Positions 25,033 to 62,680 of a DNA stretch of 64,000 nt are shown here, piece after piece (positions within the stretch are counted from its first letter, which is position 1; each line of letters starts with the position of its first letter). Origin of the DNA: Escherichia coli (lineage in GTDB: Bacteria; Pseudomonadota; Gammaproteobacteria; Enterobacterales; Enterobacteriaceae); the NCBI RefSeq assembly GCF_044647545.1, contig NZ_CP172818.1. One strand, written 5' to 3'. The notes below the pieces were generated by a model. It saw only the letters and a program-made list of their open reading frames with translations. It was not told where the DNA came from and made no database searches. Position numbers and translations under genes: made by a program.

Positions 25033-25409
<377 letters not shown>

Positions 25410-49308: not shown

Positions 49309-49611
49309 ATGACACCCTGGTTTCTTTACTTGATCCGTACCGCCGACAATAAGCTTTATACCGGGATCACCACAGATGTCGAACGCCGCTATCAGCAGCA
49401 CCAAAGCGGCAAAGGGGCGAAAGCACTGCGCGGGAAAGGAGAACTAACGCTGGCGTTTTCCGCGCCAGTAGGCGATCGTTCGCTGGCACTACGGGCGGAA
49501 TATCGCGTTAAGCAACTGACCAAACGGCAAAAAGAGCGTCTGGTAGCGGAAGGCACAGGGTTTGCAGAACTGTTGAGCAGCCTGCAAACCCCAAAGATTA
49601 AAAGCGATTGA
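49309..49611 (+). CDS. yhbQ: GIY-YIG domain protein
   Basis: 100 aa ORF; [22 protein letters not shown]-like motif. Confidence 0.85.
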
Positions 49612-50101
49612 AGTGCTCGTGATACTCAACCAGACCAGTTACACCGTTCAGCGCGTCATCCGCTAAACGATGTACCTGGAAGGCACTTTCAGTGCCCGGC
49701 CAGCGGCAACGCAGATCGTGATGTGCCGCCAGTTCAAAGCCGAAACGGCTGTACAGCGCCGGATCGCCCAGCGTCACCACTGCGGCATAGCCGAACTCAT
49801 TAAGCGAATCGAGTCCTTCATAGACCAGTTGGCGTGCCAGCCCCTGTCCACGGTATTTTTCATCTACCGCCAGCGGTGCCATGCCGACCCATTGCAGGTC
49901 TTCGCCCTGCACATCAACCGGACTAAATGCCACATAGCCAATGACCTGACCTTCGTCATCTGTCGCCACCAGCCCCAGCGTCAGAAAGCCATCTTCACGC
50001 AGATCGTGAACCAGCTTCGCTTCCGCATCACTTTCGAATGAACGACGCAGCAGGGCATCAATACCCGGCGCATCAATGGGAATTTCTACTCGAATTAGCA
50101 T
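49598..50101 (-). CDS. yhbS: GNAT-family N-acetyltransferase
   Basis: 167 aa ORF. Confidence 0.85.
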
Positions 50102-50619
50102 GGTTCACCTACCGATGTCTGTTTGGTTTCAGGCGCGGTTTTCATTCCCGCCTCAACAAAATCCGCCAGTTGCAGCAGCATCATGCGTAAGGCTTTCGGC
50201 ATTTGCTCCAGTTCAATGGCGTCCATCAGGTTTTTCACATACAGCCCCAGCTCCGTATCGCCTTCAATTACCAGCCGACGCTGGAAGAAGAGCGTATCCG
50301 GATCTTGTTTACGCGCCGCAATCATCAGCAGATCGCTGGCGTCGGCACTAAAACTCACATCAGCTTGCGCGTTCTGGCTAACGACCAGTTTGCCATTCAC
50401 CACCGAGGTAAACCATTGCAGGTCAATATCACGCACATGAATACTTAACCAGCGGCCTTCAAGAAACTCCAGCTCGCCATCATCCAACGCCTGGCGGAAT
50501 TGCCAGCTTAAGACCTGCTCAAGAACCTGGCGTTTTAGCGCAAATGGCGTCAGTTTTACCGGTACACTCAACAGAGATGGCCCCAAATGCACAATACGGG
50601 AACGCAGTTTATCCAACAC
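50095..50619 (-). CDS. ubiT: SCP2-domain protein, anaerobic ubiquinone biosynthesis accessory factor (GTG start)
   Basis: GTG start yielding (M)LDKLRSRIVHLGPS, 174 aa. Confidence 0.8.
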   Translation of the reverse strand: MLDKLRSRIVHLGPSLLSVPVKLTPFALKRQVLEQVLSWQFRQALDDGELEFLEGRWLSIHVRDIDLQWFTSVVNGKLVVSQNAQADVSFSADASDLLMIAARKQDPDTLFFQRRLVIEGDTELGLYVKNLMDAIELEQMPKALRMMLLQLADFVEAGMKTAPETKQTSVGEPC

Positions 50620-50827
50620 GAGTTTTACTCCCTGTTTCAACAATCATCCTATTTTGCCATATCAGAAAAATAACATAGCGGTATAAATCAACAATTCCAT
50701 ATGAAATTGCTGCTACCACCAATACAACTTTAACTGCCTTAAATCAAAAATTGTCGCAGCAAGGTTAACTAAAATCCCAGTTCGTTAACATTTTTGCGCT
50801 TTGATAGCGCAACCTTCAGGAAAAATT

Positions 50828-51823
50828 ATGGAGCTGCTCTGCCCTGCCGGAAATCTCCCGGCGCTTAAGGCGGCCATCGAAAACGGCGCAGATGCTGTTT
50901 ATATCGGGCTAAAAGATGATACCAATGCCCGTCACTTCGCCGGCCTTAACTTTACCGAGAAAAAATTGCAGGAAGCGGTGAGTTTTGTCCATCAACATCG
51001 CCGCAAACTTCACATCGCGATTAACACTTTTGCGCATCCGGACGGTTACGCCCGCTGGCAGCGCGCCGTGGATATGGCGGCGCAGCTGGGTGCCGACGCG
51101 CTGATCCTCGCCGACCTCGCCATGCTGGAGTACGCCGCCGAGCGTTACCCGCATATTGAGCGTCATGTGTCAGTGCAGGCTTCGGCGACCAATGAAGAGG
51201 CGATTAACTTTTATCATCGCCATTTTGACGTTGCCCGCGTGGTGCTGCCGCGCGTGTTGTCGATTCATCAGGTGAAACAACTGGCACGGGTCACACCTAT
51301 CCCGCTGGAAGTGTTTGCTTTCGGCAGCCTGTGCATTATGTCGGAAGGCCGTTGCTATCTGTCGTCGTATCTGACGGGTGAGTCGCCCAACACTGTGGGT
51401 GCGTGTTCTCCGGCCCGTTTCGTGCGCTGGCAACAAACGCCGCAGGGGCTGGAATCCCGCCTGAACGAAGTGCTGATCGACCGTTATCAGGACGGCGAAA
51501 ACGCAGGTTATCCGACGCTGTGTAAAGGGCGTTATCTGGTGGACGGCGAGCGCTATCACGCGCTGGAAGAACCCACCAGTCTCAATACCCTGGAACTGCT
51601 GCCGGAGTTAATGGCAGCGAATATTGCTTCGGTGAAAATTGAAGGCCGCCAGCGTAGCCCGGCGTATGTCAGCCAGGTGGCGAAAGTCTGGCGTCAGGCT
51701 ATCGACCGTTGTAAGGCCGATCCGCAAAACTTCGTACCGCAAAGCGCGTGGATGGAGACGCTCGGGTCGATGTCCGAAGGCACGCAGACCACCCTTGGCG
51801 CGTATCACCGTAAATGGCAGTGA
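50828..51823 (+). CDS. ubiU: U32-peptidase-family protein, O2-independent ubiquinone hydroxylation
   Basis: Start at MELLCPAGNLPALK gives 331 aa. Confidence 0.9.
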   Translation: MELLCPAGNLPALKAAIENGADAVYIGLKDDTNARHFAGLNFTEKKLQEAVSFVHQHRRKLHIAINTFAHPDGYARWQRAVDMAAQLGADALILADLAMLEYAAERYPHIERHVSVQASATNEEAINFYHRHFDVARVVLPRVLSIHQVKQLARVTPIPLEVFAFGSLCIMSEGRCYLSSYLTGESPNTVGACSPARFVRWQQTPQGLESRLNEVLIDRYQDGENAGYPTLCKGRYLVDGERYHALEEPTSLNTLELLPELMAANIASVKIEGRQRSPAYVSQVAKVWRQAIDRCKADPQNFVPQSAWMETLGSMSEGTQTTLGAYHRKWQ

Positions 51824-51831
51824 GAAGAGCA

Positions 51832-52710
51832 ATGAAATATTCCTTAGGGCCAGTGCTGTGGTACTGGCCAAAAGAGACGCTGGAAGAATTTTATCAGCAG
51901 GCCGCCGCCAGCAGCGCCGACGTGATTTATCTTGGTGAAGCGGTCTGTAGCAAACGCCGGGCAACCAAAGTTGGCGACTGGCTGGAGATGGCAAAATCGC
52001 TCGCCGGAAGTGGCAAGCAGATTGTGCTCTCCACGCTGGCACTGGTGCAGGCATCCTCCGAACTGGGCGAACTGAAACGCTATGTTGAGAACGGTGAGTT
52101 TCTGATTGAAGCCAGCGATCTCGGCGTGGTGAATATGTGCGCTGAACGCAAACTGCCGTTCGTCGCCGGGCACGCGCTGAACTGCTACAACGCGGTGACG
52201 CTGAAAATATTGCTCAAACAGGGCATGATGCGCTGGTGTATGCCGGTGGAGCTTTCCCGCGACTGGTTGGTGAATCTGCTTAATCAGTGCGATGAGCTGG
52301 GCATTCGCAACCAGTTTGAAGTGGAAGTCCTGAGCTACGGTCATCTGCCGCTGGCCTACTCCGCCCGCTGCTTTACCGCGCGTTCGGAAGACCGCCCAAA
52401 AGATGAGTGTGAAACCTGCTGCATTAAGTATCCGAACGGGCGCAACGTGCTGTCGCAGGAAAACCAACAAGTGTTTGTACTCAATGGCATTCAGACCATG
52501 AGCGGCTACGTTTACAACCTCGGTAACGAGCTGGCATCCATGCAGGGGCTGGTCGATGTGGTCCGCCTGTCACCGCAGGGTACTGACACTTTCGCAATGC
52601 TCGACGCCTTCCGCGCTAATGAAAATGGCGCTGCGCCACTACCGCTGACGGCAAACAGCGACTGTAACGGCTACTGGCGGCGGCTGGCAGGACTGGAGCT
52701 GCAAGCCTAA
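51832..52710 (+). CDS. ubiV: U32-peptidase-family protein, partner of UbiU
   Basis: Start at MKYSLGPVLWYWPK gives 292 aa. Confidence 0.9.
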   Translation: MKYSLGPVLWYWPKETLEEFYQQAAASSADVIYLGEAVCSKRRATKVGDWLEMAKSLAGSGKQIVLSTLALVQASSELGELKRYVENGEFLIEASDLGVVNMCAERKLPFVAGHALNCYNAVTLKILLKQGMMRWCMPVELSRDWLVNLLNQCDELGIRNQFEVEVLSYGHLPLAYSARCFTARSEDRPKDECETCCIKYPNGRNVLSQENQQVFVLNGIQTMSGYVYNLGNELASMQGLVDVVRLSPQGTDTFAMLDAFRANENGAAPLPLTANSDCNGYWRRLAGLELQA

Positions 52711-52790
52711 GCAAATAGCTCACTTTGTTAACAACTTTAACTACTCTTTAATGCAGTATTAAAGATTAATCGGTAACAAAGTGAGCTGTT

Positions 52791-53798
52791 ATGACTGATA
52801 AAACCATTCCGTTTTCGCTACTCGATCTGGCCCCTATTCCCGAAGGTTCTTCAGCGCGAGAAGCGTTCTCCCACTCTCTCGACCTCGCCCGTCTGGCTGA
52901 AAAGCGCGGCTATCATCGCTACTGGCTGGCTGAACACCACAATATGACCGGTATTGCCAGTGCTGCAACATCAGTTTTGATTGGCTATCTGGCGGCGAAT
53001 ACCACTACGCTGCATCTGGGGTCTGGCGGTGTGATGTTGCCTAATCACTCACCATTGGTGATCGCCGAACAGTTCGGCACGCTTAATACGTTCTATCCGG
53101 GGCGAATCGATTTGGGGCTGGGTCGCGCGCCGGGTAGTGACCAGCGAACCATGATGGCTCTACGTCGTCATATGAGCGGCGATATTGATAATTTTCCCCG
53201 CGATGTCGCGGAGCTGGTGGACTGGTTTGACGCCCGCGATCCCAATCCGCATGTGCGCCCGGTACCAGGCTATGGCGAGAAAATCCCCGTGTGGTTGTTA
53301 GGCTCCAGCCTTTACAGCGCGCAACTGGCGGCGCAGCTTGGTCTGCCGTTTGCGTTTGCCTCACACTTCGCGCCGGATATGTTGTTCCAGGCGCTGCATC
53401 TTTATCGCAGCAACTTCAAACCGTCGGCACGGTTGGAGAAACCGTATGCGATGGTGTGCATCAATATTATCGCCGCCGACAGCAACCGCGACGCTGAATT
53501 TCTGTTTACCTCGATGCAGCAAGCCTTTGTGAAGCTGCGCCGTGGCGAAACCGGGCAACTGCCGCCGCCGATTCAAAATATGGATCAGTTCTGGTCACCG
53601 TCCGAGCAGTATGGCGTGCAGCAGGCGCTGAGTATGTCGCTGGTGGGTGATAAAGCGAAAGTGCGTCATGGTTTGCAGTCGATCCTGCGCGAAACCGACG
53701 CCGATGAGATTATGGTTAACGGGCAGATTTTCGACCACCAGGCGCGCCTGCATTCGTTTGAGCTGGTGATGGATGTGAAGGAAGAATTATTGGGGTAG
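52791..53798 (+). CDS. yhbW: Luciferase-like (LLM) flavin-dependent monooxygenase
   Basis: 335 aa ORF. Confidence 0.9.
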
Positions 53799-60512: not shown

Positions 60513-60711
60513 TGTAATATCCTTTCTCTTTCTTAGACAGTACCTTACGGCACTGGTGTTAATACCCGATCTTCTGCGCATCCTCGCGACTAATGACAAC
60601 CCTAACCCAGCCCAATGTGGGTAAAGCCTCTCATTAGCCGCGCGAACCTCTGCAACGGAAGATCATTCATAGCAACAATACATTAGTTTCCAGTGAATTG
60701 CTGCCGTCAGC
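60513..60711 (-). promoter_or_regulatory. pnp 5' leader (autoregulatory/RNase III-processed region by position)
   Basis: ~200 nt untranslated region between the rpsO terminator and the pnp TTG start. Confidence 0.45.
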
Positions 60712-60745
60712 TTGAAAAAAGGGGCCACTCAGGCCCCCTTTTCTG
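60712..60745 (-). terminator. rpsO rho-independent terminator
   Basis: Plus strand gaaaaaaggggccactcaggcccccttttc, a GC-rich stem flanked by A and T runs. Confidence 0.7.
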
Positions 60746-60758
60746 AAACTCGCAAGAA

Positions 60759-61124
<366 letters not shown>

Positions 61125-62597: not shown

Positions 62598-62680
62598 TGG
62601 CCTGATAAGACGCGCCAGCGTCGCATCAGGCAATCCATGCCGGATGCGGCGTAAACGCCTTATCCCGCATGGAACCCTAA
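62598..62680. repeat. REP element between infB and rbfA
   Basis: gcctgataagacgcgccagcgtcgcatcaggca ... gccggatgcggcgtaaacgccttatcc. Confidence 0.6.

Follow-up and report, generated by a model that had tools for sequence, protein, structure and literature searches.

Does the segment at positions 50095–52710 of a 64,000-nt stretch of Escherichia coli DNA (contig NZ_CP172818.1 of assembly GCF_044647545.1; hereafter the window) encode the genes for O2-independent ubiquinone (UQ8) biosynthesis, and are these genes arranged and controlled as the original prediction had proposed, with ubiT divergent from an overlapping ubiU-ubiV pair and Fnr-dependent promoters in between? Our analysis identifies the segment, with near certainty, as the E. 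coli ubiT / ubiU-ubiV locus, and nothing was found that contradicts this identification. The gene cluster and its Fnr control are ordinary, well studied and published before. The prediction had rated the region as a known system, which is fair, as genes, biochemistry and Fnr control have all been published for K-12. Because the biology of the locus is published, its occurrence in a window of E. coli DNA contributes no new knowledge; one practical result is a corrected gene model in which ubiU and ubiV are placed without overlap.

Identity and layout of the locus

Several annotated E. coli chromosomes match the DNA of this segment with 100% identity, and 5424 of 5426 complete genomes contain the locus. 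We used the gene models of RefSeq and of the K-12 record throughout (Table 1), and the outer coordinates that had been predicted for the three open reading frames (both ends of ubiT and ubiU, and the end of ubiV) are exact. Alignment to the characterized UbiT, UbiU and UbiV of K-12, which had been proposed as a check of orthology, revealed 0, 2 and 1 residue differences, respectively. The predicted orthology is thus borne out by near-identity to the K-12 proteins, by scores of all three proteins above the NCBIfam equivalog cut-offs and by the presence of the Fe-S cysteines. The same holds for the divergent arrangement of ubiT and ubiU, which is kept in 79 of 79 Enterobacteriaceae loci; ubiU and ubiV are directly adjacent with ubiT beside them, and this layout recurs in all 79. 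A survey of ubiTUV locus architecture has been published (PMC6747719). Gene identity, coordinates, start codons, cysteine ligands and both Fnr sites were observed in the window itself, and the biochemistry, Fnr dependence, co-transcription and prephenate as donor are taken from published K-12 experiments. The K-12 proteins behind these functional claims are 99–100% identical to those of the window.

Table 1 Features of the ubiT / ubiU-ubiV locus and its surroundings, in window positions.
Feature	Positions	Strand	Description
yhbS	49598–50101	−	GNAT acetyltransferase gene; 7-nt overlap with the ubiT stop (ATGCTAA)
ubiT (yhbT)	50095–50619	−	174-aa SCP2-domain protein, GTG start; RefSeq and K-12 annotation
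Fnr site F2	50678–50691	−	TTGATTTATACCGC on the minus strand; exact match to published mutagenised site
Fnr site F1	50734–50747	+	CTGCCTTAAATCAA; minus strand TTGATTTAAGGCAG; exact match to published mutagenised site
Probable ubiUVp −10 hexamer	50770–50775	+	TAAAAT; inferred from conservation profile and published start-site distance (PMC10470549)
Candidate ubiUV 5′ leader hairpin	50794–50812	+	Stem 50794–50800 / 50806–50812, loop 50801–50805
ubiU (yhbU)	50828–51823	+	331-aa U32-family [4Fe-4S] protein; RefSeq and K-12 annotation
ubiV (yhbV)	51832–52710	+	292-aa U32-family [4Fe-4S] protein; RefSeq and K-12 annotation
Nested palindrome, candidate RNA structure	52714–52790	+	Outer arms 52714–52730 and 52774–52790

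UbiT is identical to its K-12 counterpart in the protein comparison and clearly exceeds the cut-off of NCBIfam NF047962 (SCP2_dom_UbiT; 153.4 bits, cut-off 46.9). It also matches Pfam SCP2 (71.4 bits), and a PDB sequence search with UbiT returned generic SCP2 proteins only. By analogy with K-12, UbiT would act as an accessory factor of O2-independent ubiquinone synthesis. The GTG start that had been predicted for ubiT (50619–50617, minus strand) stands, with the homologous position kept in 78 of 79 Enterobacteriaceae loci. Given this conservation, we rejected a longer open reading frame of 182 aa from TTG 50643, whose N-terminal extension is poorly conserved and whose start would fall 1–2 nt from the inferred start site of the proximal ubiT promoter, ubiTp2. 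Co-transcription of ubiT and yhbS has been demonstrated by RT-PCR, and phenotypes indicate that ubiquinone synthesis does not need yhbS (Arias-Cartin et al. 2023, PMC10470549).

UbiU aligns over residues 1–331 with positions 1–331 of NCBIfam NF047963 (quinone_UbiU; 559.7 bits, cut-off 440), and UbiV scores 362.8 bits against NF047965 (quinone_UbiV; cut-off 275). Relative to K-12, UbiU carries the two substitutions V158I and I190V and UbiV the single substitution T26A. The cysteines C169/C176/C193/C232 of UbiU (CX6CX16CX38C) and C39/C180/C193/C197 of the 292-aa UbiV (CXnCX12CX3C) are present, the former shown by experiment to be [4Fe-4S] ligands and the latter Fe-S ligands (Pelosi et al. 2019, PMC6747719). 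By analogy, UbiU is expected to form one subunit of the O2-independent hydroxylase, with UbiV as its partner. For UbiU and UbiV, a PDB sequence search returned no relative.

Both proteins match Pfam Peptidase_U32 (PF01136), and the RefSeq product of ubiV is termed ‘U32 family peptidase’, a name that PRK15447 also bears, so that the pair could be read as collagenase-like proteases of the U32 family instead of ubiquinone hydroxylase subunits. We consider this reading extremely improbable. The U32 peptidase name is historical, and genetics and biochemistry demonstrate that the near-identical K-12 proteins are required for anaerobic UQ hydroxylation and assemble into a heterodimer that carries two [4Fe-4S] clusters (PMC6747719, PMC10470549). 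In addition, 18O labelling identified prephenate as the oxygen source (Kazemzadeh Ferizhendi et al. 2024, PMC10990095).

Assignment of the U32 pair to the RNA-hydroxylating branch (TrhP/YegQ, tRNA ho5U34; RlhA/YdcP, 23S rRNA ho5C2501) has hardly any likelihood either. It draws on a secondary match of UbiU to the TrhP model (NF011996; E = 1.5e-48), but this match amounts to 165.8 bits with a cut-off of 534, whereas the UbiU model is matched with 559.7 bits over a cut-off of 440. UbiV reaches 23.7 bits on the TrhP model, below the same cut-off. Moreover, the proteins are K-12 UbiU and UbiV give or take 1–2 residues, and ubiT adjoins their genes in all 79 loci.

The ubiU-ubiV junction

The original prediction had placed the ubiV start inside the 3′ end of ubiU. 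This overlap is not supported: the ubiV ATG lies at 51832, 8 nt past the ubiU stop codon (51821–51823), and both RefSeq and the K-12 record use this start. An overlap appears only when the ubiV open reading frame is extended to the ATG at 51814, inside the last codons of ubiU (AAA TGG CAG TGA). That earlier gene model gives a protein of 298 aa whose gene would share its first 10 nt with the end of ubiU, with overlap-type translational coupling. The frame is indeed open from 51814, and in 63 of 80 related loci the upstream ATG likewise lies in the ubiV frame with no stop in between. However, this ATG is conserved because it forms part of the conserved ubiU KWQ-stop codons, and it is unusable in the other 17 loci: in 10 it falls into another reading frame, and in 7 an in-frame stop comes after it.

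The spacer between the genes points in the same direction. Among the 80 related species, both its sequence and its length (5, 7 or 8 nt) change freely, like those of non-coding DNA, whereas the ubiV start ATGAAATA is invariant in 80 of 80. Likewise, NF047965 begins at residue 8 of the 298-aa open reading frame, equivalent to residue 2 of the 292-aa protein, and both NCBIfam UbiV-type profiles start at residue 7 or 8 of the long frame. The published numbering of the UbiV cysteines fits the 292-aa protein only. Finally, the ribosome-binding sequence GAGAAGAG precedes the ATG at 51832, whereas the ATG at 51814 is without such a sequence upstream. We thus regard the 51814 start as very unlikely. 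Judged by conservation and curated annotation, ubiV most probably starts at 51832, leaving ubiU and ubiV without overlap.

The divergent control region and candidate RNA structures

The bounds that had been predicted for the divergent intergenic region, 50620–50827, are exact, but the region spans 208 bp and not ~180 bp. The expectation that it holds Fnr-dependent promoters was correct, as the published Fnr sites F1 and F2 are both present letter for letter (Table 1). F1 activates the ubiUV promoter and F2 the proximal ubiT promoter ubiTp2, and mutation of these sites abolishes the Fnr-dependent induction of UbiV and UbiT (Arias-Cartin et al. 2023, PMC10470549). The F1 sequence also corresponds to an FNR ChIP-chip site (Grainger et al. 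2007, PMC1802558). Across the Enterobacteriaceae loci, the F1 pattern CTGCCnnnnATCAA is kept in 78 of 79 and the F2 half-site ATCAA in 79 of 79, at 57–60 nt from the ubiT GTG.

The Fnr motif scan that had been suggested for this region recovers both sites, but only among matches that occur at chance frequency. Relative to the consensus TTGATnnnnATCAA, F1 and F2 each deviate at 3 positions in total, with one of their half-sites matching perfectly, and the window holds 271 such 3-mismatch matches (234 expected). The Fnr sites at ubiTUV are consequently not recognisable from a consensus scan alone, and their assignment rests on published mutagenesis, ChIP data and conservation.

The centre of F1 would lie ~42–43 nt upstream of the ubiUV start site, which we place near 50782–50784. 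The probable −10 hexamer of this promoter sits in an almost invariant 18-mer block of the conservation profile, GGTTAACTAAAATCCC, which is also found downstream of F1 in related loci. On the other strand, published distances put the ubiTp2 start site near 50644, probably preceded by the −10 element TGgCAAAAT (50659–50651). A generic sigma-70 scan missed the published promoters, and its single promoter-like match, at 50801–50829, was rejected for overlapping the ubiU start codon and disagreeing with the published start site. A conserved GTTAAC pair inspected by eye fitted none of ArcA, IscR, NarL and IHF; ArcA, IscR and NarL are not mentioned in Arias-Cartin et al. 2023 (PMC10470549).

Downstream of the probable ubiUV start site, the leader contains a candidate hairpin that stops 5 nt short of the AGGA ribosome-binding site. 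A hairpin of −6 kcal/mol or lower is predicted in 64 of 71 unique leaders, compared with 3 of 53 for an adjacent control segment. A MAFFT alignment of the ubiUV leaders was replaced by a covariance-model alignment because it was not in structural register, and the resulting bias was accepted. In the latter alignment, 88.4% of cells are paired and 6 of 7 pairs changed on both sides, and the covariation score was reached by 0 of 500 shuffles, with the caveat that the model itself guided this alignment. This pattern suggests that the hairpin is kept as a structure and not as a sequence. The sole intergenic difference from K-12, a SNP at 50799 (C here, T in K-12), falls into its stem and replaces a G-U pair with a G-C pair. 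The covarying, GC-rich hairpin could have a role in mRNA stability or in translation of the anaerobic hydroxylase.

A nested palindrome fills the spacer between ubiV and yhbW; it adjoins the cluster and is not part of it. Its 3′ arm ends directly before the yhbW ATG at 52791, and its predicted folding energy is −29.1 kcal/mol (z = −5.6). In 72 of 74 loci the stem retains 12 bp or more, with loops ranging from 43 to 161 nt. In the window, the 17-bp stem pairs a conserved upstream segment of the spacer with the ribosome-binding region of yhbW, which encodes an O2-requiring flavin monooxygenase homolog. If yhbW transcripts driven by mar/sox/rob/RamA start between the arms, their ribosome-binding site would be free, and Fnr-driven ubiUV read-through transcripts containing both arms would then be translationally silent for yhbW. 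Alternatively, the 3′ stem might have no role beyond stabilising or terminating the ubiUV mRNA. A scan for intrinsic terminators after ubiV gave no convincing candidate. The 5′ arm was also considered as a marbox, but its 11/14 match is by itself at chance level (138 found, 132 expected), which leaves this reading as no more than a lead. Direct activation of the yhbW promoter by RamA is known and lends the marbox lead some support.

Rfam searches of 50000–53000 at gathering and permissive thresholds returned nothing credible. That the leader hairpin and the 3′ 17-bp stem represent two undescribed post-transcriptional elements of the ubiUV transcript is a tentative proposal, which we consider possible but rather doubtful. 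These two RNA-structure candidates are the only potentially new material at the locus and, if real, would be modest regulatory refinements.

Proposed working and comparison with known systems

Taken over from K-12, the system would work as follows. The two divergent transcription units would share the intergenic control region. Under micro-aerobic and anaerobic conditions, ubiU-ubiV would be switched on by Fnr bound at F1, in a class-II-type position, while ubiT-yhbS would be expressed from two promoters, a constitutive distal one and a proximal one that Fnr activates at F2. Translation of ubiV would begin at its own ATG, 8 nt past the ubiU stop; since a purine-rich ribosome-binding sequence overlaps this stop, the two genes would be closely coupled without overlapping. 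UbiU and UbiV are each expected to bind one [4Fe-4S] cluster through four cysteines and to form a heterodimer that would hydroxylate the ring in ubiquinone synthesis without O2, with the oxygen atoms derived from prephenate. UbiT, an SCP2 lipid-binding accessory factor, is the proposed handler of hydrophobic intermediates, as UbiJ is aerobically. The locus allows enterobacterial ubiquinone synthesis over the whole O2 range, is needed for nitrate respiration and for anaerobic pyrimidine synthesis without menaquinones, and draws its oxygen from prephenate, an unusual organic donor.

The closest known system is UbiT/UbiU/UbiV of E. coli K-12 (YhbT/YhbU/YhbV; b3157–b3159). The K-12 locus agrees in gene content and order, strands, start codons and intergenic length (208 bp), has the same yhbS and yhbW neighbours and identical Fnr sites, and encodes all Fe-S cysteine ligands. 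The two loci differ by allelic variation only; ubiT, ubiU and ubiV show 2, 23 and 22 nucleotide changes, respectively, most of them synonymous.

More distantly, TrhP/YegQ and RlhA/YdcP share the Peptidase_U32 domain, the four-cysteine [4Fe-4S] motif and O2-independent, prephenate-dependent hydroxylation. In contrast to the UbiU-UbiV heterodimer, they are single proteins without an SCP2 partner, and their substrate is RNA and not a prenylated quinone precursor. UbiJ resembles UbiT as an SCP2 lipid-binding, non-catalytic accessory factor of ubiquinone synthesis. However, UbiJ belongs to the O2-dependent pathway (aerobic Ubi complex), whereas the window protein matches the UbiT equivalog and not UbiJ and, unlike UbiJ, is encoded by a gene that is partly under Fnr control.

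Gene content and layout of the ubiTUV locus

The ubiTUV locus is a known, well-characterized system carried by essentially every E. coli genome. Listing the ORFs of 50000-52800 and reading its sequence directly revealed three reading frames, one on the minus strand ending at 50095 and two on the plus strand (50828-51823 and one ending at 52710). Several E. coli chromosomes match these 2.8 kb with 100% identity, and a genome search located the locus in 5424 of the 5426 complete E. coli genomes. Two genomes gave no match, one carries a second copy, and one match lies on a plasmid record.

Coordinates of the ubiTUV genes, the RNA-structure candidates and the Rfam matches
Feature	Position	Strand	Remarks
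ubiT	50095-50619	-	174 aa; annotation of identical E. coli records and K-12 MG1655; yhbS downstream
ubiU	50828-51823	+	331 aa; same annotation
ubiV	51832-52710	+	292 aa; same annotation; yhbW downstream
ubiUV 5' leader hairpin (candidate)	stem 50794-50800 / 50806-50812	+	folding and covariation
Nested palindrome	outer arms 52714-52730 and 52774-52790	+	fills the 80-nt ubiV-yhbW spacer
RNase P RNA (rnpB)	25033-25409	-	Rfam
SraG sRNA	60571-60742	+	Rfam
Ribosomal protein S15 leader	60972-61086	-	Rfam
naRNA4	62599-62669	-	Rfam

The UbiT translation is identical to that of K-12, while UbiU and UbiV differ from their K-12 counterparts by two substitutions (V158I and I190V) and one (T26A), respectively. 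All three proteins exceed the cut-offs of their NCBIfam equivalog models: UbiT scores 153.4 bits (cut-off 46.9), UbiU 559.7 (440) and UbiV 362.8 (275). The model of the paralogous tRNA hydroxylase TrhP reached only 165.8 bits (cut-off 534). Pfam assigns an SCP2 domain to UbiT and Peptidase_U32 domains to UbiU and UbiV. All cysteines that bind the two [4Fe-4S] clusters (UbiU C169/C176/C193/C232 and UbiV C39/C180/C193/C197; Pelosi et al. 2019, PMC6747719) are present. Together, the near-identity to K-12, equivalog scores, domains and cysteines therefore uphold the UbiTUV orthology proposed in the original prediction, against the alternative that these are other proteins. A PDB sequence search returned no solved relative of either UbiU or UbiV, and UbiT matched only sterol carrier protein 2 entries.

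For comparison, 79 Enterobacteriaceae loci were retrieved with UbiU as query. As predicted, ubiT lies on the minus strand and starts with GTG (50619-50617), preceded by AGGGAG 8 nt upstream; it is divergent from ubiU in 79/79 loci, 78 of which also have GTG at the homologous start position. A longer ubiT ORF from TTG 50643 was rejected: its extension is poorly conserved, and its first codon would fall 1-2 nt from the proximal transcription start of ubiT derived from published distances. At its other end, the ubiT stop overlaps the yhbS start by 7 nt (ATGCTAA, 50095-50101, minus strand), in agreement with the published co-transcription of the two genes, of which yhbS is not required to make ubiquinone (Arias-Cartin et al. 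2023, PMC10470549). At its 3' end, yhbS in turn overlaps the 3' end of yhbQ, a convergent gene (49598-49611).

The original prediction further had ubiV begin inside the 3' end of ubiU, which is not supported. Such an overlap requires ubiV to be read from ATG 51814, made of the last codons of ubiU (AAA TGG CAG TGA), whereas the curated start, ATG 51832, lies 8 nt past the ubiU stop. On the long ORF, the matches to both UbiV-type NCBIfam profiles do not start until residue 7/8, and the published UbiV cysteine numbering is compatible only with the 292-aa form. Across 80 species, ATGAAATA (Met-Lys-Tyr) at the ubiV start is invariant, while the spacer ahead of it varies freely in sequence and length (5, 7 or 8 nt); the upstream ATG therefore falls out of frame in 10 species, and in 7 a stop codon blocks it. 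The likely ubiV ribosome-binding site is the purine-rich stretch across the ubiU stop, which reads TGAGAAGAG here and TAGGAA in others. Thus, ubiU and ubiV are tightly coupled but non-overlapping. A second correction concerns the divergent intergenic region, which was rightly placed at 50620-50827 but measures 208 bp instead of ~180 (205 to 245 bp in related species); otherwise the original observation was largely right, and so was its interpretation.

Fnr control of the divergent promoters

The predicted Fnr-dependent promoters in this region have already been demonstrated experimentally (Arias-Cartin et al. 2023, PMC10470549). In that work, site F1 (TTGATTTAAGGCAG) precedes the ubiUV start site by 36 nt, and site F2 (TTGATTTATACCGC) precedes the proximal ubiT start site by 33 nt and follows the distal one by 19 nt. 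Mutation of F1 abolishes anaerobic UbiV production, and mutation of F2 abolishes anaerobic UbiT induction while a constitutive basal level stays (PMC10470549). The F1 sequence is also the predicted site beneath an FNR ChIP-chip peak (Grainger et al. 2007, PMC1802558).

We found the exact 14-mers of F1 and F2 at 50734-50747 and 50678-50691. The F1 pattern CTGCCnnnnATCAA is retained in 78/79 related loci, and the perfect F2 half-site ATCAA in 79/79, 57-60 nt from the ubiT GTG. The motif scan suggested in the original prediction is not decisive alone: F1 and F2 each have 3 mismatches to the Fnr consensus TTGATnnnnATCAA, and matches of this quality occur in the window at chance frequency (271 found vs 234 ± 16 expected). 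A generic sigma-70 scan missed the published promoters. Placed from published distances rather than measured, the ubiUV start site would lie near 50784, with a TAAAAT -10 element at 50770-50775, and the start of the proximal ubiT promoter, ubiTp2, near 50644, with TGgCAAAAT on the minus strand.

Two near-invariant GTTAAC hexamers (50764-50769 and 50784-50789), 20 bp apart and part of an inverted repeat (50755-50772 / 50781-50798), flank the inferred ubiUV -10 element and start site on both sides. A second regulator might use this pair as its operator; on visual comparison, the pair does not fit the ArcA, IscR, NarL or IHF consensus.

Candidate RNA structures

Of everything at the locus, only the conserved RNA-structure candidates might merit further work. 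A whole-window Rfam scan at the gathering threshold returned only known RNAs.

The ubiUV leader hairpin has no Rfam match and is not described in the 2023 regulation paper (PMC10470549). It stops 5 nt short of the AGGA ribosome-binding site and is nearly always present, although its stem differs widely among genera (e.g., TTGCGC/GCGCAA, GCGATC/GATCGC, GCACCC/GGGTGC, ACCGCCC/GGGCGGT). The segment folds at ≤ -6 kcal/mol in 64/71 unique leaders (median -9.4), compared with only 3/53 for an adjacent 39-nt control segment (median -2.8). In a covariance-model alignment, which was fitted to the structure and whose covariation figures are to be read accordingly, 88.4% of cells are paired and 6/7 pairs show both-sided changes; in this structure-fitted setting, 0/500 shuffles attain the covariation score, and paired cells drop to 10-52% in slid controls. 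The only intergenic SNP relative to K-12 (50799 C/T) changes a G-U to a G-C pair in the stem. Comparative sequence evidence thus indicates that the hairpin is conserved as a structure, with compensatory changes across Enterobacteriaceae. Candidate roles are mRNA stabilization, control of ribosome access or, in Klebsiella and Raoultella, attenuation, since a U-run follows the stem there.

The outer arms of the ubiV-yhbW palindrome (17 nt) are 94% complementary, and it folds at -29.1 kcal/mol (z = -5.6). In 72/74 species the arms keep an uninterrupted stem of 12 bp or more (core GCTCACTTTGTTA / TAACAAAGTGAGC), with inter-arm distances of 43 to 161 nt; because both arms are conserved in sequence, little covariation is testable. 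In most loci 3-4 nt separate the 3' arm from the yhbW ATG, and in the window the two abut, so pairing of the arms would occlude the ribosome-binding region of yhbW. The yhbW gene is known to be controlled by MarA/SoxS/Rob/RamA, with RamA binding and activating its promoter in vitro, and YhbW rises 77-fold upon vanillin exposure; the 5' arm matches the marbox at 11/14 positions, which taken alone is chance level. In one possible scheme, transcripts from yhbW's own promoter would start between the arms and be translatable, whereas ubiUV read-through would contain both arms and leave yhbW untranslated, its ribosome-binding site possibly sequestered. Alternatively, the stem may mark or stabilize the ubiUV 3' end.

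Several genera (Klebsiella, Raoultella, Kluyvera, Phytobacter, Kosakonia and others) carry a ~63-nt element with a GC-rich hairpin (…GCAGCTTTTCTGGCCGG…CCAGGCTGGAAGAAGACCTTCAATCTGATGAC…) between the arms. Citrobacter, Salmonella and Pseudocitrobacter instead have GC-rich, REP-like repeats that follow the ubiV stop and precede the 5' arm. Such spacer inserts and repeats were observed at comparative loci L010-L016, L023, L026, L032, L035, L040-L044, L047, L049, L052, L057, L062, L066, L071 and L074.

Relation to the characterized pathway

The genes ubiT, ubiU and ubiV co-occur in alpha-, beta- and gammaproteobacteria, with ubiU and ubiV adjacent in most genomes (PMC6747719). In work on near-identical proteins, UbiU pairs with UbiV in a heterodimer whose subunits each carry one [4Fe-4S] cluster (PMC6747719), and prephenate is the source of the oxygen atoms (PMC10990095). 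The SCP2 protein UbiT is proposed to bind lipid intermediates (PMC6747719), in which it is likened to its aerobic counterpart, UbiJ.
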